A model generated the notes under the pieces. It was not told the origin of the DNA. It did no database searches and saw only the letters and a program-made list of their open reading frames with translations. The position numbers were made by a program, and so were the translations under genes. A stretch of DNA of 64,000 bases from Octopus vulgaris (taxonomy: Eukaryota), in the NCBI GenBank assembly GCA_951406725.2, contig OX597819.1:109058001-109122000 (forward strand), written 5' to 3'. Every line of letters begins with the position of its first letter. The first letter of the stretch is position 1. This document shows positions 38,286 through 63,540 of this stretch, piece by piece.

Positions 38286-38358
38286 TCATGGTAGTAGTAG
38301 TAATAGTGGTAGTGACAAGCACAATCATAATTACAACAACAGCAACAATACAAATATT

Positions 38359-38563
38359 TTATTTAACTTTTTTTTTCCCCTTTCCTCCCTTTTTCTTCTG
38401 ATTATTCTTTGCCTTCATCGATCGTTTGTCCTTCTTTAATCGTCTGTCAACCACCTTGAAAGGTCCCTTGGGTTTCGCACCCTTTGTTCCACCACCTTTC
38501 TTGGATATCACATAAGAAACTTCTTTCTTCTGTTTCGTTAGCAAACCAGCTTTCTTGTAAATT
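38359..38563 (-). CDS. FTSJ3: FTSJ3/SPB1 pre-rRNA methyltransferase, last coding exon
   Basis: tttatag|A ATT TAC AAG AAA GCT: IYKKAGLLTKQKKEVSYVISKKG...GPFKVVDRRLKKDKR...KKVK*; matches the Spb1_C YKKA...YVV.KK...FKVVD.RMKKD motif. Confidence 0.95.
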
Positions 38564-39022
38564 CTATAAACAGAAATAGATGAAGGATAGGAAAAAAGAA
38601 AATTTTAAATAGACACTTATCAATGTGTACACATATACACACATACATACACATACAGTACTATCATTTATTCGGTTGTCTAATGTATACAAATGATATG
38701 ATATACACAAGCAAGTGTATATCATATCATTCAACCAATTCTAAAAGTGTATATGTGTATATCACATGACTGACCAGACTATTAGATGTTGTTACACATC
38801 ACTGATTACAATGTGCTTTGCATCATTTTAGTCTTCAAATGATGCCACCTTGCTGGCTAAGTGAGCAGGCTAACATTCACCCATGATCGAAAGGAGTGCT
38901 GGAGCAATGTGAAATGAACTCTTTTGCTCAAGAACACAATGCCCCACCCAGTCTGAGAATTGAACTTGTGATCTAGCAGTCATTAGTGAAACTGCTTGAC
39001 CACTAGGCCACATGCCTTCATA

Positions 39023-39066
<44 letters not shown>

Positions 39067-40799
39067 ACATGCACAAACTATACACACAGACATGTTTAAC
39101 AAGATCATTCATTAAGTTCTAATTGTGTGTGTGTGTGTCTATCTCCTTGCACACCAACACCCATAATTAGAATTGGTGAAAAATCAATGCTAATACATAC
39201 ATCTATGCATTATTGTTGTTACACATGCATATACATGCATATTCACTTCATCAATTATGGTCTTCCAAACCCAATACTAAGTACACTCATCATCATCATT
39301 TAACATCTGTTTTTCATGCTGGCATGGGTTGGACAATTTGACAAGGGCTGGTAAAGCTGGGAGCTGCACAAGCTTCTACTGTCTGATTTAGCATGCTTTC
39401 AACAGCTGAAAGCCCTTCTTAATGCAATTTTTTTCATCTTGCAAACACTTTGGTGACCCTGTCAGTGCAGGTGCCACTTAAAAGCACTGTTCACACTGTA
39501 AAGTGGTTGGTGCCACGTAAAAACCACTCAGTTCACTCTGCTGAGTGGTTGGTGTTAGGAAAGGCATCCAGCTGTAAAAATCCTGCGAAAACAGTCACAG
39601 AAGTCTGGTGCAGGCTTCTGCTTGGCCGGCTCTTGTGAAACCTTTCTACCATGCTAGCATGGAAGATGGACATTAAATGATGACGATGATTTCCTAACTA
39701 CTAGTAAAGTTACAAAAGTGACTCGAAACCAATTTTTTAAAAAATCACACATACAGATGCACATAAACAGATATTTATCACAACACAGCAATTACTAGAA
39801 GCCCAAAATAAACTTAAAATCAGTTTTTAAAGAATTTGCTTTGAAACATTAAACAAATGTAAATACATTGTTTTATCCTCTTTGTACACAAGAAAATAAA
39901 GGAGACTGTCCAGATTATGTTTCATAAATTGTTGATCACTCAGAGGACAAGTACCCCTAAGAGAATTATAGTAACAGAATTTAGCTGTATTGGTTAAACT
40001 AAAACGCATAACATACATTCAATCTCAGTGTGATTAAATAATAAATATCTGCAAAAATCAGATCTTAGCTCATTCTCCATTTTACCCTGAATAAAGGATT
40101 TTTAAAAACTAAAAATATTGACATATTAGGCAAACAAATAAATTTTCACTTTTCTTCTTAATTTATTATTTCCAACTTGTATTCTAAAACACTTTCAAAT
40201 TACATACATATGTGTGTGTTCATTTGTTTTATGTGTACTTTCCATGCTCACATGGGTTGGATACTCTTCCTGGCACTAACCCATACCCGCTTTTCAAGAA
40301 AGGGATCACTTACCCAACATGGCTTTGAAGGCATGATTTCAGGGAAGAAACTAACAACAACACCACCTTTCACACTTTTGGAGAAGGGATTGCAGACATA
40401 AACGCACACACATATATAAATATGCCCCACTTGTTTCTGAATAAGGTAATATTTCCTCATGACTAGACAAGTTTCCATGGAAGATTGGAAATGAAGGACT
40501 GCTTATATATATATATATATATATACGTATGTATAAGCACTCTCCTTCGTTTCCTACCTTCCATAAAAACTTGTCAGAAATTTTTACCTTATTAAGACGC
40601 AAGTAAGGCTTGGAAACAGGGAGGGCATCTGACCATAAAAATCCCATTTTAATGAATTCCATCCAATCCATACATGCATGGAAAAGTGAACGTTAAAATA
40701 ATGATGATGATGATATACATGTCAATATTGTATAAGCCCAAATGCAGACACACATACACCTTTTGACATACACAGAGATGGAAAATATTCTGTACTTAC

Positions 40800-40894
40800 T
40801 CCTTAATCTTCAGCCATTTCTCCCTCTCTGATGTGTCCACACAGTCTGTAATTGTCTCTGCCCTCTTTCGTACCTTCTGCAGTTTCTTTGTCAT
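40800..40894 (-). CDS. FTSJ3: FTSJ3/SPB1 exon
   Basis: tacag|MTKKLQKVRKRAETITDCVDTSEREKWLKIK-E|gtaagt; phases 0/2 fit neighbours. Confidence 0.93.
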
Positions 40895-42506
40895 CTGTAC
40901 AACAACATCAACAACAAAATGATTTAAGTAAATATTAACAGATCACCTCCACTGATCAATTCTTCTCCTCCTATGTTGTAAAATCATCCATTAATTATTC
41001 ATTTATAAAACCAGTTACCCAATATGTGCAAACAAGAGTCTATACATGGTTACTCAAGCTGATTTATATATGTAAAACCAAGCCTCTCTCAAATAACAGT
41101 TGATCATCTTCAAAAACTGGCTAACAATGTTTAATTTGAAACTCTGGCTCAATTCTTGAAAAAATTTTTTAATTACTATGTTTTGATTTTAAAATATTCT
41201 GTAAAACATATATCAAAAGCATGCACTCAGTCAAATCCAAACTAGATTCATGATTAACTTAAGAGAATTTTTTGCTATGTCAACTAACGTAAAAGAAGTT
41301 TATGAATCTATATACTAAAAGATGTGACCTATTTCCCCTTCACTTTGTCTATATCAACCACACCAAACAGAAGCTCTCTCCTTTACCCCACCAATAAACA
41401 CATCCAAATGAATTCTAATTACATGAACAGCATTTAAAGGTTTTGCAGATGAAACTGAAAAACTTCTCGTCAGGCATTGGTCTTCTGAATAACTGTATGT
41501 ATTCATTTGGACAATTTCTATCTCTGTTCTCCATCTAAGGACTCTTACTTAATAGGACTAGATATACACCATGTGGATGGGTATTCCTCCACACACATCT
41601 TTGCTAACACCTCATATTGTTCTTTTCTTTATTCCATTATTGTTAATAAAGTTGTTATAACACATATCGATTACTTTCTCCATTTCCTTTGGCCTACATT
41701 ATGAATAAGGGTTTAGGAATAATTACCCTAATCTGCCTATGAGATCTAGTATAGGCTTCAATCCAGCTTACAAAGCCAAACAATTTTAACATCTCCAATG
41801 TAACCTTTCATGCAGTAACCTTAAATAGATGGCAGAACGATCACAGCTGAAATATCTCTGATCATAGTTCAGCTTGATCAGGGCTGATCTGGGATTAAAC
41901 ACCAATTTTGTTTAAACTAGTTGCAAACCATGCCAGAAATAGCAACATGATCTCGCTCAAAAGGAAAAAAGGGACAAATTAGATAATGGATAACATAATC
42001 AAAATACAATATGTCTAAATAAGAAATGGAAGCAAAATAGCTGGAACACCTTACATCATACATTTGACAGATGAGGGTGAGACAATAATGATACTACACT
42101 GACACAAAATAGCTATTCCACCATTCATGATTACTAATAGGAAGATGAATGTAAAATGGAAAGGAAAAGTGATTGTAAGACATGCTTCAATAAATTTGGA
42201 TATTTCCATATCAACTGTCAAAGGAAGTGATTTTTACAGCCAGCTGTCTAGCTGTGTTTTACTCTCTCTTTCTTTCTGAATGTATTTTTACCATTCACCA
42301 AACTATCAAATGGCATAAATCACCAACATTTTTATTAAGTTTGATGAAACATATACGGATGTGATTTCAAACAACAAAAAAAAAACTTTCAACTATAAAA
42401 AAACCCCTTCATGTTATCCATGTTAGGTTCAGCAGATTTGAAGTGAGAGATGTGAAATAAGAGGGTGAGAGAGTGAGTTGATAAATAAGTAAGAGTAACA
42501 ACTTAC

Positions 42507-42599
42507 TCTGAGCTTTTTCCTGATTTTAGCTTCAGCAACCTTCTTTATAGGCCGAGCATCAACTTCTTTCATCTGCTTTTTGTATTCTTCCATTTCAGC
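42507..42599 (-). CDS. FTSJ3: FTSJ3/SPB1 exon
   Basis: ttcag|AEMEEYKKQMKEVDARPIKKVAEAKIRKKLR|gtaagt; hallmark ARPIKKVAEAK motif. Confidence 0.96.
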
Positions 42600-43718
42600 C
42601 TGAAACAAACAACAGCATCAAAACATATAATAGCAATAACTGTAGTATTGAAAGGTTACACCAGGTCAGTCACTTCTCTATACAACCACTTAATAATTTA
42701 ATGATGATCATTTTCTCAGCTCAGTTGTACACTTAATTCATTTTCAATGGATCATTCACAACCACTTACTTGCCAGCATCTACATACCGATATTGAATAC
42801 CAAAGCAACAAGCTGGCCTCTGTGCCGATGGCACGTTAAAAACACCTTTCAAGCATGATCGTTACCCGCGTCGCCTTACCAGCACTTGTGCTGGTGGCAC
42901 ATGAAAAAAAAAACAAAAAGCATTCAAGCGAGGTCATTGCCAGTGCCGCTGGACTGGCTCCTGTGCAGGTAGCACATAAAAAGCAACATTTGAGCATGGC
43001 CGATGCCAGTACCACCTAACTGGCACATAAAAGCACCCACTACACTCTTGGAATGGTTGGCATTAGGAAGGGCATCCAGCTGTAGAAACTCTGCCAGATC
43101 AGATTGGAGTCTGATGCAGCCATCTGGTTCACCAGACCTCAGTCAAATCATCCAACCCATGCTAGCATGGAAAGTAGATGTTAAATGATGATGATGATGA
43201 TGCCAAGCAGAATTTTATACTCATTATAAGATAGGTATTATTAATAATAATAATTGCTTCAAATTTAAGCATAAGACCAGCGATATTAGGGGTAGGAGGT
43301 TAGACGATTATATCAATTCCAAATTTTGGCATGAGGCCAGCAATTTCAAGGAGTGGGTAAGTCAATTACATCAACCCTAGTGCTCAACTAGTACACTGGT
43401 ACTTATTCATCAACTCTGGAAGGATGAAAAGCAAAGTCAACCTCAGCAGAATTTGAACTCAGAATGAAAAAGGGAGATGAAATGCAGCAAAACATTTTGC
43501 CTGGCATGCTAACGATTCTGCCAGCTTGCCACCTTAATAATAATGATGATTTCAAATTTTGGCACAAGGCCTGAAAGTTCAGAGTACAGGGTTAATTGAT
43601 TACATTGACCCCAAGACTCAACTGGAACTTGTGCTAACGATTCTGCCAGCTCACCATCTTAATAATAATAATAATAATAATATGAGAAAGAATATGAAAA
43701 GCAAATTAATGGTCTTAC

Positions 43719-43803
43719 TTTTGTGACTGGAACATTCTTTCTTGCATGTTTTTCTTCTTCTTTCAAGAACCAGCGTGGTAAGTTGGGGTCATCATACATG
43801 AAT
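43719..43803 (-). CDS. FTSJ3: FTSJ3/SPB1 exon
   Basis: attag|-FMYDDPNLPRWFLKEEEKHARKNVPVTK|gtaaga; LP.WF..EE..H...PVTK motif. Confidence 0.94.
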
Positions 43804-44732
43804 CTAATAAGATACAAACAGATTTAGTGAAAAGAAGTCCATCCTAGTATGATGGTCATGACAATATAATTGGTGGACACAGGATTACAACAAATACTTT
43901 AGGCAAAGGCATAGTTAGCACTTGTAGTTATTGTTGTTACCATTCTTTTTTAGATAACATATTTAAGACTACATTACAAAACATATCGTTCCCTTTACTT
44001 TTAAGCCAATGTGATTTCAAAATGATTTGGCTGCCATTTTGAGCAGGCTCAGTGATCAAATACAAATAATACTGAATATGAAGAAACCTGTACATCAGGC
44101 AAGCCACACCACTAAAAAAGTTCAAGGTAATTTTGCATTGGGCATGCCATTCAGAAAGTCCCTACAGCCACAGTTTGCCCATGATTGTTCTACATCAGTG
44201 GTTCTCAATCGAGGTCCACACAAAATAGTAAATTAAGGATCCACAATAGTGTTTTAAGGGACCCTGAAAAGAATTTTGCTTTAGATTAATGTACTGGTAT
44301 GAATTGCAAGAAACAGCTAACTTTCTCTAACATTTTATATAGTTCAATCTATACAAAGCAATGTATGGAAAATCAAAACAGGTAAAACTAGTTTTTAAAC
44401 ACTGAATGGCAATGGGGGTCCACCAGAATAAAATAGTAATCAAAGGGGTCCACAGGTAAAAAACGATTGAGAACCCCTGTTCTACATGATTGTGCAACAT
44501 GTTATAAATAGTAACCTACTGCCCTTCAAATCACATCTAATTGTCTTAGGAAGAGAACATATTAGATAATGTAAACCTAATCCTAGTCCATGTATAAAAA
44601 AGAGAGGATGGCCATAGCTGGAATGAGTTTGATCAAAAACCAGATCAGGGCTGACTTGGGGACAAAACAACAGACTTGTACTCACAGAAAAACACACTGT
44701 TGATTAAGAAACAACACTGGGGTGTTACTTAC

Positions 44733-44829
44733 TTGTGATATCCTGATTCAATAACTTCACGACGCTGCTTCTTGGAATGTACCATCTTAGCAGCAAGGGC
44801 AAGACCTTCTGGATCCAGTTCTGGTGCCA
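44733..44829 (-). CDS. FTSJ3: FTSJ3/SPB1 exon
   Basis: actag|-APELDPEGLALAAKMVHSKKQRREVIESGYH-K|gtaagt; LDPEGLAL motif. Confidence 0.94.
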
Positions 44830-45954
44830 CTAGTAATTAATAAATCAAACAAACTTCTTTAAAATCTCATTCCTGCACCAAACTACATGCATGCATATAC
44901 ACACACAAAGAGACAGAAGCAAATTGGAAAAGTCATTAGTGTGTTGGATAGAATATTTTACAGTATTTGTTCGGATTCTCTGGATTCTGAGTTCAGATGC
45001 CATCAAAGTTAACTTTGTCTTTTCATTATTTTGAGGTTATAAATAGTGTTACAAATCAAGAAAGCTTTAGATGAACCAGTGTAGAAGTGAATAGTTCATA
45101 GCCTGGCAGACATTGGGTTCAACAACCCTACTTAGGACTTGAGATTCGATTGTAGAGACCACTCAACTGCAAGATGACAGACCTGATTTCAGTCAGACAA
45201 TAGTTCCTTAACTAGTTCCCATCAGTCTTAGACACTCTGATATGGGTCAGAGACAGTGCAATTCCTCACTCTGACCAATCCATGAAAAATATTTTTAATA
45301 TAAAAAAAGAAAGATTCCCTTTACATGTCATGTCCCTAGGATCTAATTAAGAGATCATTAATGTAACCACAGCCAAGAGTAGCTGGAAAGAATTTCAAGC
45401 TTCTCTTTTTAGCGTAAAGGCTTCCACATAGTGGTTCCCTTTCATATATATATATATATATATATACCAGAGGTAGACCTTTATGACTTAAATGGCTTTG
45501 GTCAATATTCTGAGGCAGTCATTGTCTCCTAAATAATACTGGATCTAAATTAAGGACTATCACTATGCATAATTCCAGGTTTTAAAGCCACATTCATAAT
45601 ATCAAATACATGTTGACCAAACTGTGAGATACAAAGAAACATATACTTGATAACCATGCATTCGCGCAGACAAATATGCAAATATAAGAAGAACAATGTA
45701 TGCCCCGTGTACCTCTCTCCTAATTTAAATGTCTGTTTAACCCTTTTGATACCAACACACCTGAGACCACTCTTAATCCATGGTACAAATTTCCTATTTT
45801 AAAGCAAGCAAAATTTCGTTTTAATTTATTTTCCAAGGCAATAGAAATATAGTAACACAATGGTTAAAACATCAGGTTAACTAAGCAGGTATGCAGTGGA
45901 TCAGTAAACAAAAATTCATATAAATGTAACATGTGAAGAATAATACATCTATGC

Positions 45955-46090
45955 AAATGTATGATGCATGTGAAGTCTTTTGCCATTCCAATAAAAACCA
46001 GAAGACACAAAAAGCAGCATCACATTAATATAGCATCTAGCTTTCCCCCCAACAATGACATAGAGGTCAGAGTGGGTCTACAGAGATGCC
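45955..46090 (-). ncRNA. H/ACA box snoRNA copy 1 (SNORA58-like)
   Basis: GCAUCU...AGAUGC hairpin, H box AUAUUA, UGAUGC...GCAUCA hairpin, ACA plus 3 nt; intronic and sense to FTSJ3. Confidence 0.8.
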
Positions 46091-47776
46091 ACTCACATAC
46101 ACACACTAACACAGATATTTATTGCAATACCAAAACATAACTTGTTTGGGGCTCGTGCCAGTGGAATGTTAAAAGCACCATCTGAGTGTGATTGTTGCCA
46201 GGGCCACTGATTGGCTCCTGTGCCGGTGGCACATAAAAAGCACCATTTGAGCGTGATCATTGCCAGCATCGCCTTCCTGGCATATGTACCAGTGGAATGT
46301 GAAAAACATTTGAGAGTGGTCATTGCCAGTGCCGCCGAACTGCCTCCCGTGCAGGTAGCAAAAAACTCCTTTTGAGCATGGTCGTTGCCAGAACCACCTG
46401 ACTGGCCCTCGTGCCGGTGGCACGTAAAAGCACTCACTACACTCTTGGAATGGTTGGTGTTAGGAAGGGCATCCAGCGTAGAAACTTTGCCAGATCAGAC
46501 TGGAGCCTGTTGCAGCCTTCTGGCTCACCAGTCCTCAGTCAAACCATCCAACCCATGCCAGCATGGAAAGTGGACATTAAATGACAACGATGATGATGAT
46601 GATGTTAAAAGGTCTCTTGGTTCAAAACAAAGAGATAAACACTATAGGAATCCATAAAAGAGAATCACTACATTAGTGGACAACTGACCAAGGCACCAAT
46701 GGTTATTCTCTTACATTCATACAATGTTGTTTCAGAGATACAATGTAGTAATGTTTGAAAGAGAATAACCATTGATATCTTGGTCAATTGCCATATCATG
46801 GCAATATTTCATTATTGCAAGTACCAGCAACAATATCTGACCAACTGTATTAAGGCATAGACATGGTTGTGTGTTTAAGAAGTTTGCTTCCCAACCACAT
46901 GGCTTCGGGTTAAGTCCCACTGCATGACACCTTAAGCACATCTACTATAGCCACAGGTCGACCAAAGATTTAAGAGTGGATTCAGTAGCTGGAAACCAAA
47001 AGCTCAATGTGAGTATATGTGTATATGTATATATGTGTGTATGTTTGTGTTTCCTTGTTTTGACATTGAAGATAGTTCTAAATGCATATCACTGTCACAC
47101 AAGCAGTACCATTCATTTCCAATATTTTCTGGAAAACATGTCTGGCCATGGGGAAATATTAATTTGCTTAGAAACAGGAAGATCTGTTGAGAATCCACCT
47201 TAATAAACTCCATCTGACCCATGCAGGCACGGAAAAGTGGATGTTAAAATGAGGATGATGATGTATTATAGACTTAAGCATCATTACTTTTTAAAATGAC
47301 CTTAAGTATAACTTCTGGTGTTTGCAGTCCTTCACAGACCCTTAATCTAAAATCTAATGTACTGTATGACACCTAAGTTACTAGATCCAAACTCTGGTAT
47401 GTATGATGTCACTAAAGATATCTCACTTCAAATTTTCCCCCAAAGAAAGTTCTAACTTTATATGCAGCATCTACATGTTATAATTCTTAAGAACTAATTT
47501 ATCTCTTATAGGTGTCTAGTTCTGAGATCATTAATGTAACCAAGACCAGAAGCAGTTGAAATGACTTGCAGCTCAGTACATATAATACTCTGTGCAGTTA
47601 TAAAGTTTGCTGTCATAAGAGCATTTTAAAGCAAAAATTCTCAGTCTAGTGATGTGTTTAACTATGTTGGATCTAAATAATCAGACAGTCAGAATGTCCA
47701 AAGTAGTTGTTGCTTATGATCTTTTCAAAATCTGAGGCTGCTACTGTGACAAAACTTTGAGCAGACACACACACAC

Positions 47777-48153
47777 TTACTTGTACTTGTGGCAACATTC
47801 ACCCTGGGCGGGTTGAGTCGGCTTCTTCTACTCATGGAAGAAGTTTCGTGGGAATATGTGGATTTCACAAGCGGTCCCCAACAATCCCGCATGTAGAGAC
47901 ATCCCGTTTGCCGCAGATTGTCCGCAGACACAGGAACAGAACGACCGAGGAGCCGCCGGTTGCCGAAGCAGACACTCCGAGGATTTTCACCAGAGCCCCG
48001 TCTGCCAGGTTGTGGCCTTAATACCACTCGGTGTCAGACCAATCCACCTTGGGTGGCCCTACCAGGAACCGAAGTTCCCGACGGCATAGCTCTGACACTA
48101 CCTGTTGCCAGCGTCCCCATCATGGTGAGGAGGGGATGGACTTTGGGGACGCG
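47777..48153 (-). mobile_element. GC-rich RTE-like 5'UTR-derived insertion in (CA)n
   Basis: GCTATGCCGTCGG...GGTAGGGCCACCCAAGG motif; CpG-rich; GACACACACACAC on both sides. Confidence 0.5.
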
Positions 48154-48420
48154 ACACACACACACATATGAATGATTGTAAAATAATACATCACAGGCAT
48201 GGCTGTGTGATAAAAAGCTTGCTTCCCTACCACATGGTTTCAGGTTTAGTCCTACTGTGTGCACCTTGGGCGAATGTCTTCTACTATAGTCCTGGATCAA
48301 CCAAAGACTTTTGAGTGGATTTAGCAGACAGAAACTGAAAGAAGCCTGTTGTGTACACACACACACACAAGATTACTCAATATTTTTTGGAGAGTATATA
48401 CATACTTATTACACTTTAAT

Positions 48421-48531
48421 AAGAACAGTGTTGATAGGGACTTCAAACTTTCAGCCTGCTTAGCCTTCATTGGACTATCTGATGAAGGCTAAACAGGCCA
48501 AAAATTTGAAGTTACTGTCAACACTATTCTT
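48421..48531. repeat. ~52-bp-arm inverted repeat with decayed hammerhead core
   Basis: 48421-48472 pairs with 48479-48531; arm consensus CTGATGAAGGC...GGC(C/T)GAAA. Confidence 0.55.
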
Positions 48532-48691
48532 GTTGAAAAGTAATCTCTCTCTCTCTCTCTGTACATACATGCATGCATGTGTCTGTCCAGTTTTGTCACA
48601 GCCCTGTCTCCTTGCCTTGGCATCACATGTTAATTATAAGTGTCACCATCATGCAAGCATAGCAAAATAGGCATTAGAACAATGATGATGA

Positions 48692-48826
48692 GAATGTATG
48701 ACACATGTAACATCTTGTGTCATTCCAATAAAAACTAGAAGACACAGAAGCAGCATCACTTTAGTATAGCATCCAACTTTCCCCCCAACAATGACATAGG
48801 GGTCAAGGTGGGTCTACAGGGATGCT
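48692..48826 (-). ncRNA. H/ACA snoRNA copy 2
   Basis: Same fold; basal stem GCAUCC/GGAUGC; H box AUACUA; ACA box. Confidence 0.78.
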
Positions 48827-49348
48827 AAACATATCACTAATGAAATAATGTAGAAACGTCTAACATATTCAGATGAAATCCAAAGGATTTTAGAAGTTAA
48901 AAAAGATCCAAACATAGACTAAGTGTGTCTTACACGTTTGCAGGTGAGCAAAAATGCTTGAAACAATATGAAAATGTACATTGAATAGATAGATTGGTAA
49001 ATCTTATGATGCCTACATGTACCATGCAGGACACAAATCTAATATTTTATGTTCAGTGTACTAACTCTCAGCTCCAATATCTGATATGCAGTAAAGAGCA
49101 ACTGATATTTAATGTATATTCTGCACTGGAAGGGAAGCTTCCAGTGTAGAATGTACCTATATATCATGGCCTAGATTCTGGAGGTCATGTAATATTTTTA
49201 TGGCTTTAGTTTGACTTTAACATGGGTCTTTACAAAAGATGACTCTAGACATTTCTAGATTGAAAACTTGTGTGTTAGGTTGGCTGTCCTATAATGCTTA
49301 ATGATGTACACAATTATATGTCTCAGGGGAAAAATACTTCTCTGTAAA

Positions 49349-49484
49349 CAATGTATGATACATGCAACATCTATTGTCATTCCAACAAAATCTAGAAGAC
49401 ACAGAAGTAGTATCACATTTAATATAGCATTCAATTTTCCCCCCAACAAAGACACAAGGCTCAGGTTGGGTCAACAGAGATGCC
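49349..49484 (-). ncRNA. H/ACA snoRNA copy 3 (pocket variant CUGUUGA)
   Basis: H box AUAUUA and ACA intact; guide substitution. Confidence 0.7.
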
Positions 49485-49880
49485 ATATACTCAAACAGTT
49501 ACAAGCCTACCACAGAAACTTTTAAGTACTTCAAATAATATTTAGAGGTTTACAGGTGTCTAAGTTAAGAAACCAAAACAGAAAACAAAAGTTAATACAT
49601 CAGGTTACTAGGAACACCCAGACAGGCAGTCATATGTTTTTAATATCTTTATGCACTTAGTTTAGTCTTAAAAAAGATGACACCAGATATCTCCAGAGTT
49701 GAAACATGCCTGTTGGGTTGGTTATGTCTTACATAGGTAACTGATGTCCATATGTTTTGATGGAGTTGGGGAAAGTGTTGTCCTCCAGTGGACCAGATCC
49801 TGTTGAACCATCCAACTCATGCCAGCAAGGAAAGCAGAAGAAGAAATGTATGACTGTGGAGAATAACACTTCCTTGAGAA

Positions 49881-50015
49881 CAGTGTATGATGTATGTGAT
49901 ATCTTTTGCCATTCTAATAATAACCAGAAGACACAGAAGCAGCATCATTTTAGTATAGCATCCAATTTTCCCCCCAACAATGACATAGGGGTCATGGTGG
50001 GTCTACAGGGATGCT
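49881..50015 (-). ncRNA. H/ACA snoRNA copy 4
   Basis: H box AUACUA, ACA box, both stems present. Confidence 0.76.
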
Positions 50016-50540
50016 AAACATATCACTAATGAAATACTGTAGAAACTTATAACATATTCAGATAAAATTCAAAGGATTTTAGAAGTTAAAAAAAGATCCA
50101 AGCATAGACTAAGTGTGTCTTACACGTCTGCATGTGAGCAAAAATGCTTGAAACAATATGAAAATGTACATTGAATAGATAGATTGGTAAATCTTATGAT
50201 GCCTCCATGTACCATGCAGGACAACAAATCTAATATTTTATGTTCAGTGTACTAACTCTCAGCTCCAATATCTGATATGCAGTAAAGAGCTAGTGATATT
50301 TAACGTACATTCTACATTGGTAGGGAAGCTTCCAGTGTAGAATGTACCTATATATCATGGCCTAGATTCTGGAGGTCATGTAATATTTTTATGGCTTTAG
50401 TTTGACTTTAACATGGGTCTTTGCAAAAGATGACTCTAGACATTTCTAGATTGAAAACTTGTGTGTTAGGTTGGCTGTCCTATAATGCTTATTGATGTAC
50501 ACAATTATATGTCTCTGGGGGAAAAATACTTCTCTGTAAA

Positions 50541-50676
50541 CAATGTATGATACATGCAACATCTATTGTCATTCCAATAAAATCTAGAAGACACAGAAGG
50601 AGTATCACATTTAATATAGCATTCAATTTTCCCCCCAACAAGGACACAAGGCTCGGGTTGGGTCTACAGAGATGCC
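50541..50676 (-). ncRNA. H/ACA snoRNA copy 5
   Basis: H box AUAUUA, ACA box; paralog of copy 3. Confidence 0.72.
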
Positions 50677-51113
50677 ATATACTCAAACACAGTTACAAGC
50701 CTACTATAGAAACTTTGAAGTACTTTTAAATAATATTTAGAGGTTTACAGGTGCCTAAGTTAAGAAACCAAAACAGAAAACAAAAGTTAATACATCAGGT
50801 TACTAGGAACACCCAGACAGGCAGTCATATGTTTTTAATATCTTTATGCACTTAGTTTAGTCTTAAAAAAGATGACACCAGATATCTCCAGAGTTGAAAC
50901 ATGCCTGTTAGGTTGGTTATGTCTTACATAGGTAACTGATGTCCATGTTTTGAGGCAGTTGGGGGGAAAGTGTTGTCCCTTAGTGGACCAGATTCTGTTG
51001 AACCATCCAACCCATGCCAGCAAAGAAAGCAGACATTGATTGATGTGGAGAAGGAAGAGTGATGATGATGATGAAGAAATATATGACTGTGGAGAATAGC
51101 ACTTCCTTGAGAA

Positions 51114-51248
51114 CAGTGTATGATGCATGTGATATCTTTTGCCATTCTAATAATAACCAGAAGACACAGAAGCAGCATCAAATTAATATAGCATTCAATT
51201 TTCCCCCCAACAAGGACTCGAGGCTCAAGTTGGGTCTACAGAGATGCC
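51114..51248 (-). ncRNA. H/ACA snoRNA copy 6
   Basis: H box AUAUUA, ACA box; mosaic of copy 5 and copy 4/7 types. Confidence 0.72.
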
Positions 51249-51528
51249 ATATACTCAAACACAGTTACAACCCTACTATAGAAACTTTTAAGTACTTTTA
51301 AATAATATTTAGAGGTTTACAGGTGTCTAAGTTAAGAAACCAAAACAGAAAACAAAAGTTAATACATCAGGTTACTAGGAACACCCAGATAGGATGACAC
51401 CAGATATCCATAGAGTTGAAACATGCCCGTTGGGGAAAAAGTTGTCCTCCAGTGGACCAGATCCTGTTGAACCATCCAACCCATGCCGGCAAGGAAAGCA
51501 GACATAGATTGATGTAGAGAAGGAAGAG

Positions 51529-51559
<31 letters not shown>

Positions 51560-51597
51560 GAAATGTATGACTGTGGAGAATAACACTTCCTTGAGAA

Positions 51598-51734
51598 CAG
51601 TGTATGATGCATGTGATATCTTTTGCCATTCTAATAATAACCAGAAGACACAAAAAGCAGCATCACATTTAATATAGCATCCAATTTTCCCCCCAACAAT
51701 GACATAGAGGACAGAGTGGGTCTACAGAGATGCC
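51598..51734 (-). ncRNA. H/ACA snoRNA copy 7
   Basis: H box AUAUUA, ACA box; basal stem with U-G wobble; 5' hairpin closest to copy 1. Confidence 0.78.
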
Positions 51735-52335
51735 ACACATACATTGTTATTGCAATACCAGAAAACACTACCACTCTATACATTAAAATAACATGCAGGA
51801 GAATATAGATATCTTGGTTTAACCCGTTAGCATTTAAACCAAGCAATACCTGGCTCAAATACTCTATGTGTTTTACATTCAAACTGGCCAGATCTGGTCT
51901 CTCATATCCACCCTATCAAAATCTCTTATTTACAAGACAATGCATGATTAATTCAGAACAATGTGAACAAATAAGCATTACATTGGCCAGAGTAATTCAT
52001 CATCATCACGATCAACACTTAACATCCATTGTCCATGCAGGCATGGGTTGGATGGTTTGACCAGGGCTAGTAAGTTGAGGGGCTGCACCAGACTCTAGTC
52101 TGATTTGCCATGGTTTCTTTGACTGGATGCCCTCTGAATGCTACAGGGTTAAAATGATGGCAGAAACCTTAAGCCCCTTAGGTTCTAACATTTGGGGTCA
52201 TGTACTTTACAGGTCCCTATGATTCAACTTCTGGTGTCCATGTGCACTACAGGACTTTATTAAACTCATGTCTTTCCTAGTATGACCACAGAGTTACACA
52301 ATAGTAAAACACTAGATGCTCATATATTGTATGTA

Positions 52336-53053
52336 CAGGGTGCGATGTGTAAACTGTCGCCATTTTATATTTTTAATTTTGCACATGCACATTGTTTGTT
52401 TTTGATTTTGTCAACTAGACAGTATAGTAGGGTCAGTTAGGCACCGTCTGTGAGAAAAAACAGCACTGTGATGCAATTCACTCTGCCAGAAATATGGAAA
52501 AGACATGCTTTATTGCTTGGAATTTGTGCCGGAAGCTCTAATACAAACATTTCAGAGTGTTTAGGTGTCAATCTGAGGACAGTGCAGAGGATTCAGAAAA
52601 AGTTGGACAAGTTTAATGGTGATTATGAAGGTACGGCAGCTCAGAAAACTCACTCTGATCGTTCCGATAAGAAAAGAAATCCTGAATTTGTTGGTGAGAT
52701 CCAGGCCATGACTGACAATGATCCCTTCAAGTCAATCAGATCCATCACAAGGGACATGGGAGTGTCTGAGTTTCTTATCAAGCAGGTAGTGCATGAAGAC
52801 ATTCGGTATTCCTCATACAAGATGAGAAAGGGCCAATTTTTATCCCAAGCCATCAAGGACAAGAGGAAAGACCGTGCTTCACAACTTTTGAACAAACACA
52901 AGCATTCCTTCCAACCAAACATGCTTTGGTTTTTCTCAGACAAGAAAAATTTCTGTTAAGATCAGATAGTGAACATACAAAACAACCATTGGTTTGCCAT
53001 GTCCTCAAATTATGTACCAAGAATGATAAAAATCAAACATCCAGTCAGCATCA
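52336..53053 (+). mobile_element. Tc1/mariner (maT, DD37D) fragment: left TIR plus N-terminal transposase
   Basis: TA|CAGGGTGCGA end; ORF 52450-52959 with HTH-like ISECLGVNLRTVQRI and first catalytic motif WFFSDKKNF; truncated. Confidence 0.8.
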
Positions 53054-53161
53054 TTGTTGTAAGCAGAATCAAAAGAAGTTGTAATAAAATACAGGCTCCT
53101 CTAGATATAAAGGCTACAGTTGATAAAGCAAGTAGAACCACCAGAAGTTGGGACAACTGAC

Positions 53162-53857
53162 AGCAGCTAGTAATCAATAGTGAGATTAGGCATGGCTGTA
53201 TGGCTTAGAAGTTTACTTTCCAACCGTGTGGGTTTGAGTTGTCTCATTATTTGACATCTTGAACAGGAATAGCTTCAGGCCAACCAAAGTTTTATGAGTA
53301 AATATAATAAACAGAAACTAAAAAAGCCTGTCGTGTGTGTGTATCTCCTTGCTTTGACATCATGTGATAATTGTAAACAAGATTCACCATCATAGCAGCT
53401 AGTAATCAATAGTGAGATTAGGCATGGCTGTATGGCTTAGAAGTTTACTTTCCAACCGTGTGGGTTTGAGTTGTCTCATTATTTGACATCTTGAACAGGA
53501 ATAGCTTCAGGCCAACCAAAGTTTTATGAGTAAATATAATAAACAGAAACTAAAAAAGCCTGTCGTGTGTGTGTATCTCCTTGCTTTGACATCATGTGAT
53601 AATTGTAAACAAGATTCACCATCATAGCAGCTAGTAATCAATAGTGAGATTAGGCATGGCTGTATGGCTTAGAAGTTTACTTTCCAACCGTGTGGGTTTG
53701 AGTTGTCTCATTATTTGACATCTTGAACAGGAATAGCTTCAGGCCAACCAAAGTTTTATGAGTAAATATAATAAACAGAAACTAAAAAAGCCTGTCGTGT
53801 GTGTGTATCTCCTTGCTTTGACATCATGTGATAATTGTAAACAAGATTCACCATCAT
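53162..53857. repeat. Near-identical 232-bp tandem triplication of a decayed SINE segment
   Basis: AGCAGCTAGTAATCAATAG starts at 53162, 53394 and 53626. Confidence 0.92.
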
Positions 53858-54177
53858 ACAAGCAGTGTTCTTTGTTTCCACTCTTCAGGGAAGACATGCC
53901 CAACCATTGGGAAATATTACCTTGGTTAGATATAGGTGAGAGTTTGTGGCAGAAAGGCATCTGGCCATAGAAAATCTGCTGCAACAAATTCCATGTAAGC
54001 ATGAAAACTGAATGTTAAAACAAAACAAAATTTTAAGATTGATATTACACTTTAAGACTGGTTAAATAAGAGGCCAAGATTGTACCTCTTGCTTGATCTT
54101 AACGTCAATTTAATGCATGAGTCACAACATGTTTACCAGACATTTACATATGTATTAGGTACATACATACTTGAGAG

Positions 54178-54314
54178 CAGTGTATGACATAGCTAAACAT
54201 CTTGTGACATTCTAATAATAACCAGAAGACACAGAAGCAGCATCACATTTAATATAGCATCCAACTTTTCCCCCCACAATGACATAGAGGTCAAGGTGGG
54301 TCAACAGAGATGCC
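54178..54314 (-). ncRNA. H/ACA snoRNA copy 8 (pocket variant CUGUUGA)
   Basis: H box AUAUUA, ACA box; unique flanks. Confidence 0.7.
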
Positions 54315-55271
54315 ACACACACACAAATATCTTTACTGAGGCCTGCAACAGAACATTCTCTCACACCTGAGACAGAGCTGCCATTGCACACAAACATTCA
54401 ACATGCCAATCAGTCAGGTGGGCCAAAAAGAGGGCCATCTAACTGATTGGCATAAAGCCACTCGCAAACATGTTCCAGCCTTTAATCGAAAGTCTTCTCT
54501 TTCTGCTTTTTTTTACCACTACTATACTGACCTCTGCCCATTTGGGCTACCTCCACTTAGACATTCCCATTCCAACTGTCTCTCCTCCTCTCATTACTTT
54601 TGTTGTATCCTAGCCCCTAGGCCCTACACTACACCAAGTCCTTCCTTCCTAGAAAGTCAGCCTTCTGGAATCCCCACATATACAACACCCGCTCATATTT
54701 TTCCCACAAGTATTGACTTGCAAAGATTCATGAGGCACATTAATGGCTTCAGTCTCAGTCTAACAAATTCTATCTGGCACATGCCAGCATAGAAAAGTGG
54801 ACATAAAAATGTTGATGATGGTGTGCTATCCAAACAATGCGTTTCAGGTATCTTTAAAATACCTTTGTCTAAAAGATTCTAACTTCAAATAAAGGATACT
54901 TGTATGTGTTATAATTCTCAAGAAGTAAACCTGCTCCTACAGATGTCTATGATAAAATTCCAAGAATTGATGTAACTAGAACCAAGAATAGTTGGAATGT
55001 TTGCAGATCTGTGCATAAGTTACAAAGTTTGGTTTGGCGTAGAGTTATCTTAGTCTAAATTATCAATCTGTCTCAGACGGTCTGGATGTAAATGGTGAGG
55101 CAGTGAGAGTGCCAAAAGTATTTGTGGTTCTGTTGATGATGTTGGTCTCTTTGAAAATCAGACATTGCTTCAGCAGTCAGACATGCTAAAAAAAAAGACA
55201 TATTTGATACACACCCTTTCACCCACCCCCACTGTATGTATATACAGCTATAGAAAAAAATACACATCTAA

Positions 55272-55406
55272 GAATGTATGACACATGTGACATCCTGTAT
55301 CATTTCAATGAAAACGAGATGATACAGAAACAGCATCACTTTAATATAGCATCTAACTTTCCCCCCAACAATGACATAGAGGTCAAGGTGGGTCTACAGA
55401 GATGCA
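55272..55406 (-). ncRNA. H/ACA snoRNA copy 9
   Basis: GCAUCU/AGAUGC stem, H box AUAUUA, ACA box; more diverged 3' hairpin. Confidence 0.74.
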
Positions 55407-57210
55407 ACACACACCCAACACATTTTTAATATTTGTAACAATAGGGCATCCAGCTGTAGAAACTTGGCCAGATCAGATTGAAGCATGGTGCAGCCATCTG
55501 GTTTGCCAGTCCTCAATCAAATCGTCCAACCCATGCTAGCATGGAAAGCAGACATTAAATGATGATGATGATAGATGTTAAAAATTTTAAAGCATATGAA
55601 TAACCAAACAGTACATTAAAGGATTCTACAGAAGCTAAGAGGTCAGTAGTCTCTTGTTTATTGTATCTTACTGAATCTTACACTCAAATGTTTATCATTT
55701 GTGTACTACAATGCATCCTTGAAACAACATTTCATGTTCAAGAACCAAACAGTACCTTAGTTAATTTGTTGTTTCTATTGAACAAACTGTCTGTACATTC
55801 ATATTCTTGTATATATAATGTGGCTTATTGTTTTCAAAGATTCTGCAAATCAGTATACCTACTACATCTTCAATGTTTTTATATCCTCAGAGCACCTTAA
55901 AGCTGACATTAAATCTTGATGATAATAAATATTTCCAGTGTTAGAAACCCACAAGTTAGTTGCATCTTACAGAGGTTCTTCATGTAAGAAAGAGCCAGGA
56001 AAAGTTTACAAAACATACAGCATACTAGTTATAAACTCTGTAATCAAAAGTATAACCAAAGTCTATTTCACTACACAGGTCGGTTTGATTTAAGACTATT
56101 CTAGTGATTAGTGCACTCTAAAAACCATCTTGTGCCAAAATTATGATTACACTTGTAAGTTAGGTTGGTTATCCTATCAGAGTTGATGTTGTAAGCAGGC
56201 CCACGAGACGGTGTGATAACATACAAGGTTTCCTAGACATATATTACAAAGTTCAGTTTAACATGAAGGACTTGAAAATATCCTGATATAAATTTACTCA
56301 AAGGAATATACATTATCCACACACTTAAACACAAAAACTATCACATAGTTACAAATCATTATAGAGCACAGACATGGCTTAAAGGTCAAGAGGCCTGCTT
56401 CCTAACCATGTGGTCTAGAGTTCAGTTCAACTGCATGGCACCTAGGGAGTCTTCTAGTTGCAAACCCAGACTGCACAAAGTCTAGTGAGTGGATTTCATA
56501 AATGGAAACTGAAAGAAGCCCATTGCATGTGTGGGTGTCTGTGTGTACCCTTTTCAAAACACCATGTAGGGTTGTAAATGAGCATCATCATCATACAAGC
56601 ATGGTTGTTCATTTCCCATCTTTGTGGTAAATATGTCCAGCTATGGAAAAATATTACCTTGTTTGGAAACAGGTGACAGAAACTGACAGGATGTGCATCT
56701 AGCCACAACAAATTTTGTCACAGACTTTAAATGTTAAACCACCCACCCACAACTTCTATTCCACTTTTGCCTGGTGGGGCCTTCTGGACACCTTAACACC
56801 ACTCTATGCCGTGTGGATTCTACTGATCATTTTATCCCCATCACCACCACCTTTTTTTTCCATATAAGACGTTAGTAGCCAAGCAGAACCCTCTGCAGGA
56901 ACCTGCTCTACCCTCTTCTCTCATAGTAAACTCCCAGCATGAAGCTGACTCTTCCTCCACCTACACCAGGGCTTGTGGCCCAACAAACTGCAGAGTGACC
57001 TTAAATGTGCAGGTGACACAAAAAAAGCACCCGGTACCTACTGTAAAATGATTATTGTTAGGAAAAGCATCCAGTCATAAAAAACCATGCCTAAGCAGAC
57101 ATTGGAACTCGAAGCAGTCCTTGGATACATCGATGTTAAAAACACATAGACATGAACATGTCATATAAAAACAAACTACCATATAGCACTATATATAATA
57201 TTATACATAC

Positions 57211-57499
57211 CTCGCTTTTTTGCTTTATGTGCTGTTAAGTTGTCTTCCTCTTCCTCACTATCATCATCATCATCATCATCATCATCATTGTCGTCGTCGT
57301 CTTCGTCGTCAGAGCTAAATACTTGTTGTTGACCAATACTATTATCCACTGGTATCACCTCAAAATCTTCCTTCTTATTTTTTGCCTTTGCTTTGCTAGG
57401 TATTTTAAGATCATCAATTTCATCCTTCCCATCTTTCATTTCATCCTCACTGGCTTCACTTTCCTTCTCGTCTTTTGAAATCAAAGCAGAGAATGAATC
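57211..57499 (-). CDS. FTSJ3: FTSJ3/SPB1 exon (acidic region)
   Basis: tctag|DSFSALISKDEKE...EDFEVIPVDNS...D/E run...KAKKR-G|gtatgt; phase 1 joins the 44829 exon (GTG, Val). Confidence 0.88.
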
Positions 57500-57640
57500 C
57501 TAGAAGAAAAAGAGGTAAATAAATACACAAAACAGAAGATGTAAATACAAAATATGAAAATTTACATATATACATGTGTCTTCCCTCTCTTCTCTCTATC
57601 TATCTATCTGTATGTATAAATAAATATATATATATAAAAT

Positions 57641-57975
57641 GAAGGCGTATGGCTCAGTGGTTAGAGCGTTGAGCTTTTGATCGCGCGGTTGTGAGTTTGA
57701 ATCCTGGACCGGGCTGCATGTAGTGTTCTTGAGCAAGACACCTTATTTCACGTTGCTCCAATTCACTCAGCTGTAGAAATGAGTTGCGACGTCATGGGTG
57801 CCAAGCTGTATCGACCTTTGCCTTTCCCTTGGATAACACTGGTGGCATGGAGAGGGGAGGCCGGTATGCATGGGTGACTACTGGTCTTCCATAAACAACC
57901 TTGCCTCGACTTGTGCCTGGGAGGGTAACTTTCTAGGTGCAATCCCATGCTCAGTCATGACCGAAGGGGTGTCTC
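57641..57975 (+). mobile_element. tRNA-derived SINE
   Basis: TGGCTCAGTGG A-box, GTTTGAATCC B-box, CTTGAGCAAGACAC core. Confidence 0.7.
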
Positions 57976-58329
57976 AGCAGTCAATATATATAAAACTATA
58001 AAACTGATATCTATTAGAAATGGATGAACTCCACCCCACCAGTTTTACTTTGCATTTGCTTCCATTAGTCTCAACTCTTAATTTTAGAAGTTGTATTTCC
58101 ATATCTATTTCGTTTAGAGACATTAATTCCATAGTTTCTTTTATTTTTCTGGCTCTTCAGTTATTGTTTTTATTTGCAGTTTACAAAGTAAACTAATGAA
58201 CAAATGGAAAAGGAATGTACCAAAAAAGCAGAAGGACTCCACTTACAAAACATTTTGAAACTCTGAAAAGAAGACTGTGAAAATATGGACACTGTGTCCC
58301 TCCAATGATGGAAGAGAAATAATAATTGG

Positions 58330-59360
58330 TTCCTAAATTATGAAGCGGAGTTTAAGTGGACAACCCTTTCGCAAAGAAATTGATTTAAGTAAAAACATAT
58401 GCGGATACAGTAGGACAACCAAACATAAGCTCAAATATGTTTGATAGAGAAGATAATAGAGACAAATCACTAGTAAAAAAAAAAAAAGCAAATTTTGTCC
58501 AAAGGTAGGGAAAAAATACAGCTCTTGATACTTCCTGAGAACTAATTGCAAATTTTTCTATTTAAATGAAAGAAAATAGAAAATAGAAAATCAAATTTCA
58601 CAAAACAAGACTGGCAAAATCTAATTAATCTACAATTAAAGAAGCTAACAAAGGTAGTGCTGTGGTTATCCTGGATACAAAGTATTACAAAGAAATGGTA
58701 TTGAAATGTTTGAAAATAACTATTATGAAAAAATAGACAACTATAAACAATCAAAGGTATTGGGAAAATCTTGCTATATTGAATAAATATCACAAATATC
58801 TGACACCAATAGAATTTGACCATATAAGCAATTTCAGACACAAAGCCAGTGACTACTATGGTCTACCAAAAATTCACAAAAATAAAGTTATAAGTTATAC
58901 TTGTAAAAACTCTAAATATAAATATGTTAAAATATTGCCTCTAGATAATACAAAACTCCAACCAGTTATAGCAGGCCTTGCATATGAAGCACACAGGTTA
59001 AGCAATTTTTTGGACATCTTACTAAAACATTTCTTAAGGCATGTACTGAGTTTTATTCAAGAGGATCTGTATTTACTTAATCACTTATTAAACACAGTAA
59101 GTCAAAATACAATTATTATTTCTTTTAACGTTATTTATCTATACACTAATATTCCACCTAATTATGGAATTAATGCAATAAAATATTAGATGTACACTAA
59201 GTCAAATTACCAGAATGCATCAAAATAACTTTATCATTAAAACTCAGAGATTCATATTAGAAAATAATTACTTCTCCCTCAATGATTTAATGTACTTTAA
59301 AATATCAGAGACTGTGATGGGGACCAAAGTTGCCCCTACATATGCCTAACTAGTAACGGA
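58330..59360 (+). mobile_element. Decayed Penelope-like element reverse transcriptase
   Basis: Ordered PLE RT motifs: KEANKGSAVVI, YGLPKIHK, LQPVIAG, SFNVIYLYTNIP, ILENNYF, VMGTKVAPTYA; stops and frameshifts. Confidence 0.85.
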
Positions 59361-59778
59361 AGTCATAATTGTCACTTCAGATAATAATACAAGGAAGAAT
59401 GATGAAATGGCAAATTTTTTGAGTATTGGCCAAAATACCATGCAGTATTTCTCCTGGTTTCTTATATTCCGAGTTCAAATCCTACTGACTTTTGCCATTC
59501 ATTCCATTGGGATCAATAAAGCATCAATTGATAAACTAAAGCATTGAGGTCAGTATTATCAATTAATTTCCTCCCCTTCAAAATTGCTAGCTTATGATGA
59601 AAAGTATTCCAGCCATGACCATCCATAAGGTATAGTGTAGGACTATATTAACCAATATATCTCACACTTTTTAAGTGGAGGGATGTGAATCAAGGGTGAC
59701 CTGGCTATTATTTCTAGCATATAGAGGACTCCTTTATTGATTTGTATGATTATAGTTTATGAAGAGAGCAAAGCTTAC

Positions 59779-59860
59779 CTTGCTAAACCATTCTGCCACT
59801 TTTTCAGATGTCGTCTGTTTCTCAGTGAGACTCACCAACAGAGGATTTTCTTTCTCTTTT
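59779..59860 (-). CDS. FTSJ3: FTSJ3/SPB1 exon
   Basis: aatag|-KEKENPLLVSLTEKQTTSEKVAEWFSK|gtaagc; NPLLV...WFSK motif. Confidence 0.92.
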
Positions 59861-60156
59861 CTATTTAAAACAAATACAACATATAATACAGATGATGACA
59901 ATGATGGTGAAGGTTAGTGGTGATGAGGAGGAGAAGAATACGGAAAAATACAAAAATGACTGCAACAATGATGGTCAATGCTTCTCGACCTTTTTTAATC
60001 ATCACCCCTTTTCTTTTACTAACACTTTTTCAATGACTTCTTACAATAATCTGGAAGAGGGTAGAAAAGTGATGACCCTGCATTCCCTCTGTAAATGGTG
60101 AGACTGATGCTGCTGTTAATGTTCCAGTTAAACTGCGCTTATATATGCATACACAT

Positions 60157-60201
<45 letters not shown>

Positions 60202-60207
<6 letters not shown>

Positions 60208-61030
60208 GCGATGGATAAATTGCTGCCATTCTATATTTTTAATTTCGTGCATGCGCATAGTTTGTTTTTGATTTTGTAGACTACACCGTATAGTAGGGTC
60301 AGTTGGGAACCATCTGTAACAAGAACATCGTGATGCAATTCATTCTACCAGAAATTTGGAAACAACATACTGTACAGCTTGGCAATGGCACTGGAAGCTC
60401 CAATGTGAACATTTCAGAGTGTTTAGGTGTCAATCTGAGGACATGTACTGAGAGTAATAAAAATCAAACATCCAGTCAACATTATGGTGTTTGGAGTAAT
60501 CACTAGTGATAACAATGTTAGGCCTCCATTCATCTTCTCACACGGCCTCACACTCAACATGGAGGTCTACATTAAGTGCTTGGAGGAGGTAGTGCTGCCT
60601 TGGGTCAAGAGGGTGGCTGCTGGAAGACCCTATGTTTGGCAACAGGACTCTGCACCATGCTACACAAGCAAGAGAACCCAGTCATGGCTGTCAGACAATT
60701 TCTGCAACCACATCACCCCTAACATCTGACTGCCTAACTCCTTAGACTACAATTCCTTTGATTTATTATGTGTGAAGTGCAGTTGAGCAAGAAACCAACA
60801 AAATTTCTTGTAAAACCAAAGATAACTGAAGGCAAGGATTATGGAAGCATTCATCAACCTAAACAAGGAGACCATCCAGAAGAGTTGCAGGAGATTCCAA
60901 AGTTGTCTGGAGGCCATGGTTGAAGCCAATGGTGATTTTATTGAATAAATTTACTCTTTAGTATTTCAAGTTATTTTTATGTAATTTTGGTAAATATATC
61001 TGTAAAAATGAGATGTCAGTGTTATTTTGT
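60202..61030 (+). mobile_element. maT (DD37D) element with internal deletion, catalytic half
   Basis: Same left end as 52336; MVFGVITSD...WQQDSAP...PNSLDYNSFD with 37 codons (one a stop) between the 2nd and 3rd Asp. Confidence 0.8.
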
Positions 61031-61519
61031 TGGGCGTATTCAGGGTTTTTTGACACCTGGCACCCTGGAGCAATTTTACTTTTAATGTAATCATGCAGTT
61101 AGTGAGAACATAAAGAAGATACACACACTGAGTATGTGACAGCTGTGGTGTTTATATATATATATTCTTTTACTTGTTTCAGTCATTTGACTGCAGCCAT
61201 GCTAGAGCACCACCTTAAGGGGTTTTAGTTGAACAAATCAATCCCAAGACTTATTCTTTGTAAGCCTAGTACATATTCTATCAGTCTCTTTTGCTGAACT
61301 GCCAAGTTACAGGGATATAAACACACCAACATTGGTTGTCAAGATATGGTAGTTGGGAGAAACACAGATGCAAACACACAAATATATACATATATATCAT
61401 CATCATTTAATGTGTCTTCCATGCATGCATGAGTATAAAAATTTTACAAGTGAAAAATTGATAACGACTTCGAAGTTTTTGTTTGTTTGCCTGCATCATA
61501 TATATAATATATATTTATA

Positions 61520-61667
61520 TCTATCTTATATATTAAAAGGCAAGTTGTATGTCTGTGTGTTGTGTGAACCACTTCTCCTACACTTTTCAACCGAATTTCA
61601 TTAAATTTTACACATGCCTTACTAAAGGTCCTGGGCCAAAAACATTTCAACTTCGAAAGAAGTCTGT

Positions 61668-61704
<37 letters not shown>

Positions 61705-63474: not shown

Positions 63475-63540
63475 TATATATATATAGATTATTCACACAC
63501 ACACACAAAACATACAAAGAAGGGAATGTACATGACTTAC

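Follow-up and report, generated by a model that had tools for sequence, protein, structure and literature searches.

One intron of the FTSJ3/SPB1 gene of Octopus vulgaris contains nine paralogous genes resembling SNORA58, a small nucleolar RNA (snoRNA) of the H/ACA class. The intron lies in a 64,000-nucleotide (nt) stretch of contig OX597819.1, referred to here as the window. We consider it probable that the nine copies are transcribed with their host and cut into guides of ~135 nt, seven of which are predicted to act on the uridine of 28S ribosomal RNA (rRNA) equivalent to human pseudouridine (Ψ) 3823. Nine instances of the ~135-nt unit, all on the minus strand and each 135–137 nt long, lie between 45955 and 55406 (Table 1). 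A BLAST comparison of one copy with the 64-kb window returned nine matches at E<=8e-34, and the E-value of the next match was not below 0.08. In 9/9 copies a hairpin is followed by the H box AUAUUA or AUACUA, a second hairpin and ACA plus 3 nt; the 3' end was inferred from the ACA motif, which by this placement lies 3 nt from it. An earlier, sequence-only reading of this DNA had proposed nine copies on the sense strand of the host within one intron, each with two hairpins and both boxes, and our analysis confirmed this layout by BLAST, by strand and by the splicing described below.

Table 1. Host intron, adjoining exons, snoRNA copies and recent duplication (positions in the window)
Feature	Position	Strand	Basis or character
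FTSJ3 coding exon 5' of host intron (acidic region)	57211..57501	-	contig pieces 57316-57501; joint at 57211; in frame with Spb1_C exons
Host intron of FTSJ3/SPB1	44830..57210 (12,381 nt)	-	GT...AG; joint 44829/57211 in 4/4 RNA-type runs; splice-site sequences
FTSJ3 coding exon 3' of host intron	44733..44829	-	joints at 44733 and 44829; translation; following exons match Spb1_C
Copy 9	55272..55406	-	first transcribed; SNORA58-like H/ACA; predicted 28S guide intact 4+5, 3 more pairs past mismatch
Copy 8	54178..54314	-	SNORA58-like; GUAGA->GUUGA; best match 18S Ψ324-equivalent (3+5); pocket 17 nt from H box
Copy 7	51598..51734	-	SNORA58-like; predicted 28S guide 4+5
Copy 6	51114..51248	-	chimera: 5' half nearest copies 5/3, 3' half nearest 4/7; predicted 28S guide 4+5
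Copy 5	50541..50676	-	recent duplicate of copy 3 (96%); predicted 28S guide 4+5
Copy 4	49881..50015	-	chimera: 5' half copy 2-like, 3' half copies 6/7-like; predicted 28S guide 4+5
Copy 3	49349..49484	-	GUAGA->GUUGA; best match 18S Ψ324-equivalent (3+5); pocket 16 nt from H box
Copy 2	48692..48826	-	SNORA58-like; predicted 28S guide 4+5 + 3 past mismatch; sole match returned by genome-wide RF00418 search
Copy 1	45955..46090	-	last transcribed, 1,125 nt before 3' splice site; SNORA58-like; predicted 28S guide 4+5
Recent tandem duplication block	48689..51741	.	copy2-A-copy3-B-copy4-A'-copy5-B'-copy6-B''-copy7; self-BLAST, spacer and half-copy comparisons

The identification of the host as FTSJ3/SPB1, also proposed earlier, agrees with the protein domains and with the splice joints. 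Three of the four downstream exon frames match Pfam Spb1_C above the cut-off and the fourth below it, while an FtsJ match was found in an exon ~10 kb beyond the window, upstream in the gene. Transcript evidence was taken from assembled contigs of long-RNA-type runs (4 of 24 runs compared). Intronic contigs of low depth also cover some of the snoRNA copies, but we set them aside, as contigs reveal neither the ends nor the levels of mature RNAs. Position 57211 was joined to 44829 in all four runs, which belong to four studies, four downstream introns were also spliced, and the exons joined across the host intron translate in frame with no stop. Since the 12,381-nt intron is spliced whole in each of these runs, all nine copies lie within one intron of the main messenger RNA (mRNA). 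Rfam E-value scans of other FTSJ3 introns (38000-45600, 56000-64000 and 40 kb upstream) revealed no convincing snoRNA, giving only microsatellite-driven microRNA matches and weak C/D matches.

Regarding the family, all nine copies matched the Rfam model of SNORA58 (RF00418) over model positions 1-136 when the E-value was relaxed (26.4-35.1 bits, E 0.001-0.13), and SNORA58 was the best-scoring Rfam snoRNA family in the array region. Two results weigh against full membership, namely that 9/9 copies score far below the RF00418 gathering cut-off of 75 bits and that a gathering-threshold scan of the whole window gave no Rfam match. When RF00418 was searched against the whole genome, with 41 of 190,384 candidates scored, copy 2 was the single match. 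The H/ACA identity read from the letters is supported, and on their model scores the copies are classed as SNORA58-like rather than as Rfam SNORA58 members. Because the array lies below the Rfam cut-off, standard annotation misses the locus.

In the Rfam consensus, the strands of the 5' pocket, GUAGA and GGGACAGU, complement ACUGUCCC-U-A-UCUAC, a sequence present in 4/4 28S loci of the genome. Pocket targets were searched in this genome's own 28S, 18S and 5.8S rRNA and U2 small nuclear RNA (snRNA), with U1, U4, U5 and U6 outside the search. For seven of the nine copies, as well as for a further copy on C5 (see below), ACUGUCCC-U-A-UCUAC in 28S was the top Watson-Crick match of the 5' pocket. 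Pairing in the seven comprises 4+5 contiguous pairs at 16 nt from the H box, a distance found in 8/9 copies, and copies 2 and 9 form three extra pairs past a shared G·A mismatch. H/ACA guides are described as pairing in two parts over 9-13 nt round the target uridine, with the H or ACA box at a distance of 13-16 nt (PMC5062969); seven copies pair with 28S in this way, and copies 3 and 8 do not. According to the supplement of PMC6984369, SNORA58 is assigned to human 28S-U3823 and Xenopus U2982, and the rRNA alignment printed there shows a 28S Ψ in the same sequence context as the octopus site. Two observations speak against the pairing. All copies have the G·A mismatch, at a place in the pocket (position -5) that is paired in the Rfam consensus, and a 9-pair match alone was reached by 8/100 and 14/100 shuffled target sets. 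The 28S match therefore carries weight because it is the assigned site of SNORA58, and not from its nine pairs alone. Judged by complementarity, seven copies are likely to guide Ψ formation at the uridine in 28S that corresponds to human Ψ3823. The 3' pocket differs from copy to copy, with no target common to them in 28S, 18S, 5.8S or U2, and is probably non-guiding. The array may also increase the dose of a single guide, as the earlier reading suggested; two of the nine copies are without the 28S pairing.

Six older copies (1, 2, 3, 7, 8 and 9) were the starting point of the array, which grew through tandem duplication of DNA and through unequal crossovers that fell within RNA bodies. Spacers within the recent duplication block are 3.6-6.0% diverged in self-comparison. 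The 5' half of copy 4 has two differences from copy 2, while its 3' half has one from copy 6 and three from copy 7; similarly, the 5' half of copy 6 shows five and six differences from copies 5 and 3, and its 3' half is of the type seen in copies 4 and 7. The array is not confined to a single assembly, since contigs of three DNA-type runs, one of which could be the source sample of the assembly, span several copies together with the flanks belonging to each. In their coverage of the host intron, runs labelled organisms B-D show differences of only a few percent.

Copies 3 and 8 carry GUUGA instead of GUAGA, and this A→U change disrupts the pairing with 28S, which stops at a mismatch after 4+2. 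Their best target is GCCC-U-A-UCAAC in 18S, with 3+5 pairs. This is exactly the context reported for Xenopus Ψ324, whose assigned guides are two SNORA58-like copies that accompany three ordinary SNORA58 copies; the shift is described as a target switch by point mutation (PMC6984369). GUAGA is retained in copy 5, which is 96% identical to copy 3, and the change thus either arose twice or travelled by short conversion. Retargeting is opposed by several details: only eight pairs are formed, the other pocket strand lacks a compensating change and goes on with three mismatches, and the pocket of copy 8 sits 17 nt from the H box. Copies 3 and 8 may be either weakened 28S guides or guides partly retargeted to 18S, and simple decay fits the data equally well as retargeting. 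A more ambitious interpretation sees in the array a guide-diversifying cassette, with all copies coming from one lariat, in which crossovers would shuffle hairpins and the A→U change in two non-sister copies would move them from 28S Ψ3823 to 18S Ψ324, in convergence with frogs. We regard it as doubtful. If true, it would mean that endonucleolytic release, or a long RNA with nine small nucleolar ribonucleoproteins, exists in animals outside insects, and a Ψ at the 18S U324 equivalent, if present, would mean convergent guide retargeting.

In the reading that we prefer, all nine copies would be transcribed together with the FTSJ3 pre-mRNA and the H/ACA proteins of the dyskerin complex would assemble on each of them. 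Lariat debranching, endonucleolytic cuts in the spacers and trimming by exonucleases would then leave ~135-nt monomers, as needed for clusters of the Drosophila type, and the monomers would direct Ψ formation at the 28S site. The enzymes that release co-hosted snoRNAs are described as largely unknown outside budding yeast (PMC12508059). What weighs against this route is that no cleavage hairpin specific to the spacers was found, strong hairpins being present in some spacers and also in snoRNA-free introns. RNase III-type spacer hairpins were considered as release signals and rejected, because the hairpins of snoRNA-free introns are equally strong. Trimming by exonucleases alone would have another outcome: the main products would be H/ACA-ended long noncoding RNAs of the SLERT type (sno-lncRNAs) with a length of up to ~9.5 kb, the distance between copies 9 and 1, and monomers would be few. 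Sno-lncRNAs are known to arise in mammals from introns with two snoRNAs, and the ends of SLERT are of the H/ACA type (PMC11028025); the length of the spacers (349-2,601 nt) and the result on cleavage hairpins also agree with such products. However, the spacers are filled with fragments of transposons and short interspersed elements (SINEs) as well as a perfect 3x232-nt repeat, and the old flanks are unconserved, which gives no hint of selection on a long RNA. Moreover, intronic H/ACA clusters of Drosophila yield monomers. The H/ACA genes of the fly generally lie in intronic clusters (PMC3089462), and on balance we find predominant sno-lncRNA formation unlikely. Copy-specific variants can tell it from the release of monomers.

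The constraint on the copies was also analyzed. The two-hairpin structure is paired in 92.8% of 333 cells across the nine copies, a value favoured by its derivation from the same nine sequences. The sequence-only reading had cited basal pair 6 as an example of preserved pairing, and that pair is indeed as described (U-G in five copies, C-G in two and U-A in two), with two-sided change in 2/37 pairs overall (11/500 shuffles were as high). Its wider statement that many substitutions preserve pairing was too strong. Pairing is kept by 14/31 stem alleles, which is not above a transition-biased null (transitions 0.60-0.75, P 0.21-0.58); an excess appears only under an unbiased-mutation null, and transitions account for 47/70 changes in the spacers. 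Further results pointing away from constraint are that stem columns do not vary significantly less than unpaired ones (26/74 vs 25/49, p=0.094), that the bodies of copies 3 and 5 have diverged by 3.7%, equal to their spacers, and that single-copy folding z-scores are only -0.66 to -2.96. On the other side, 0/6 box columns vary, and box and guide columns taken together vary in 2/15 cases vs 25/49 for unpaired columns (Fisher p=0.015). The six older copies have bodies that are 77-92% identical and 100-nt flanks that are 47-63% identical, compared with 51±4% for random sequence, in line with the earlier remark that the flanks of older copies have diverged. The case for selection thus comes from the boxes, the guide and the contrast of body and flank, and not from covariation.

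The same figures bear on the idea that function is limited to one copy or a few, the rest being passengers homogenised by gene conversion and unequal crossover in neutral churn. It would explain the missing covariation excess and the youngest pair, whose bodies diverge as much as its spacers; the chimeric copies denote active recombination, pairing with 28S is gone from copies 3 and 8, and ~20 nt are deleted from a copy on C2. Furthermore, yeast snR9, which guides near this region of 25S, can be deleted without an effect on growth (PMC5062969). Nevertheless, both boxes, the length of 135-137 nt and both basal stems are kept in nine copies despite 8-23% divergence among the old ones, and box and guide columns vary less than unpaired ones. 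We believe that this explanation is improbable.

It could also be supposed that rare cryptic exons or recursive sites put each snoRNA in a small lariat of its own, the isoforms being removed by nonsense-mediated decay. Animals mostly have one snoRNA per intron (PMC11028025), and 5'-splice-site-like motifs exist in 7/8 spacers. The splice joints examined were 15 of about 1,009, in contigs that drop rare forms, and no internal GT-AG joint of the host intron was among them. The 12.4-kb intron has no AG/GURAG ratchet (recursive-splice) motif, and a crude scan found 3'-splice-site-like motifs in only 2/8 spacers and in 0/5 short ones. Since neither the joints examined nor the motif scans point to recursive splicing or to a concealed arrangement with one snoRNA per intron, we consider this very unlikely. 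A donor-like GTGAGT (46091-46096, minus strand) stands directly before copy 1 and is unused among the joints examined.

Genome-wide DNA searches (2.8 Gb) with two query copies gave at least 11 and at least 10 matches, which are the nine copies plus those on C5 and C2. The C5 copy (C5:78637812-78637943, +) is full length at 132 nt, with the H box, ACA and 4+5 28S pocket intact and no A tail, and no host exon was recognised within 20 kb of it by a crude open reading frame filter. On C2 (minus strand, near 95571900), a degenerate copy of 116 nt, whose 5' hairpin is missing ~20 nt, is a probable pseudogene, round which the same crude filter recognised no host gene; it is followed by a short T/A run and adjoins an inverted-repeat element. 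A model of the nine-copy family detected no copy in 134 kb besides the nine and those on C5 and C2. None of the nine is followed by a poly(A) tail, no target-site duplication is evident in their flanks, and copy-only bins in the DNA-type runs have a depth of order 10-100, vs 10^5-10^6 for true repeats. A snoRNA-derived SINE or miniature inverted-repeat transposable element (MITE), although compatible with two dispersed copies and fairly sharp body boundaries, is hardly credible given the few matches (11, a lower bound, where the sequence-only reading would have expected hundreds from a dispersed element), the lack of tails and evident target-site duplications, the low depth, homology that runs into the flanks and spacers duplicated together with bodies.

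The supplement of PMC11028025 applies the term intronic_cluster to several snoRNA genes sharing one intron, which the host-sense nine-copy array fits; the part of it available to us has no FTSJ3 row. Human SNORA58 copies are placed there singly in introns of MRPL3, UBAP2L and NDC1, not FTSJ3, whereas nine share an intron here. The octopus copies are like SNORA58/ACA58 (RF00418) in the full-length model match, the 5' pocket strands, the predicted 28S uridine and the H/ACA anatomy, but differ in scoring 26-35 bits against a cut-off of 75 and in the G·A mismatch in the 3' pocket strand. Local paralogs likewise form the UBAP2L SNORA58 cluster of Xenopus tropicalis, with five copies in ~3.9 kb, two of them assigned to 18S U324 by point mutation (PMC6984369), and copies 3 and 8 resemble Xenopus pug18S-324 in best matching the same 18S uridine. 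However, Ψ324 was detected in the frog and is only predicted here (3+5, no compensating change), and the host gene is another (PMC6984369).

Compared with the clusters of Drosophila, the array belongs to a different phylum. Spacers in intronic clusters of flies are short, and those found here differ in being 0.35-2.6 kb long and repeat-rich. The likeness lies in isoforms of one H/ACA guide placed together in introns of a protein gene, as in Psi28S-1135a-f with 1192a-d (RpS5a), 3316a-e (dom) and 3405a-d (Hrb98DE), sets given the intronic_cluster label (PMC11028025). Among 60 of 63 Psi28S matches listed in that source, which does not state how many share one intron, the largest single-family set has six members, compared with nine in the octopus. 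The Drosophila mfl cluster was dropped as a precedent because of its one-per-intron arrangement (PMC1821038). As in SLERT and other sno-lncRNAs, a long RNA could be capped where an excised intron holds more than one snoRNA (PMC11028025), but there two snoRNAs stand at the ends, whereas here there are nine paralogs. Titles and abstracts on octopus or cephalopod snoRNAs or on FTSJ3 as a snoRNA host, with few subscription journals covered, contained no report of this locus. The squid genome paper, in its available part, gives Rfam counts only (PMC6962438), and no ACA58/SNORA58 match was found in the supplement of PMC6182160. With this array, the arrangement of several H/ACA genes in one intron, as described in Drosophila, extends to a further lineage of animals; the host gene of the nine copies, which all belong to one family, itself encodes an rRNA-modifying enzyme.

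Several other elements were noted. The 232-nt unit is found three times at 53162-53858, in the spacer between copies 7 and 8, with 99-100% identity, and parts of it resemble dispersed repeats of the window. Tc1/mariner-like transposase fragments, high in copy by read depth, lie in FTSJ3 introns at 52441-52956 (+) and 60297-60729 (+); the former gave weak helix-turn-helix matches, and the frame 60439-60726 no Pfam match. Long palindromic hairpins, probably MITE-like, occupy the spacers at 46677-46793, 48421-48531, 49095-49172 and 50294-50357, with similar ones in upstream snoRNA-free introns. Three diverged stretches (~45340-45600, 47400-47760 and 54840-55190) have short words in common by eye and are possibly remnants of old long interspersed elements. 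A frame of 150 amino acids at 58737-59189 (+), with no Pfam match, looks like a decayed piece of a retroelement reverse transcriptase. Upstream of FTSJ3, on the other strand (L020:3789-5363, +), there is an uninterrupted frame of ~525 amino acids, which we take to resemble a Tigger/CENP-B-type transposase-derived gene. Finally, the genome contains at least 48 near-full-score U2 snRNA genes, with several tandem arrays on C3 and C23, and its 18S rRNA measures ~2.6 kb and its 28S match ~4.9 kb.

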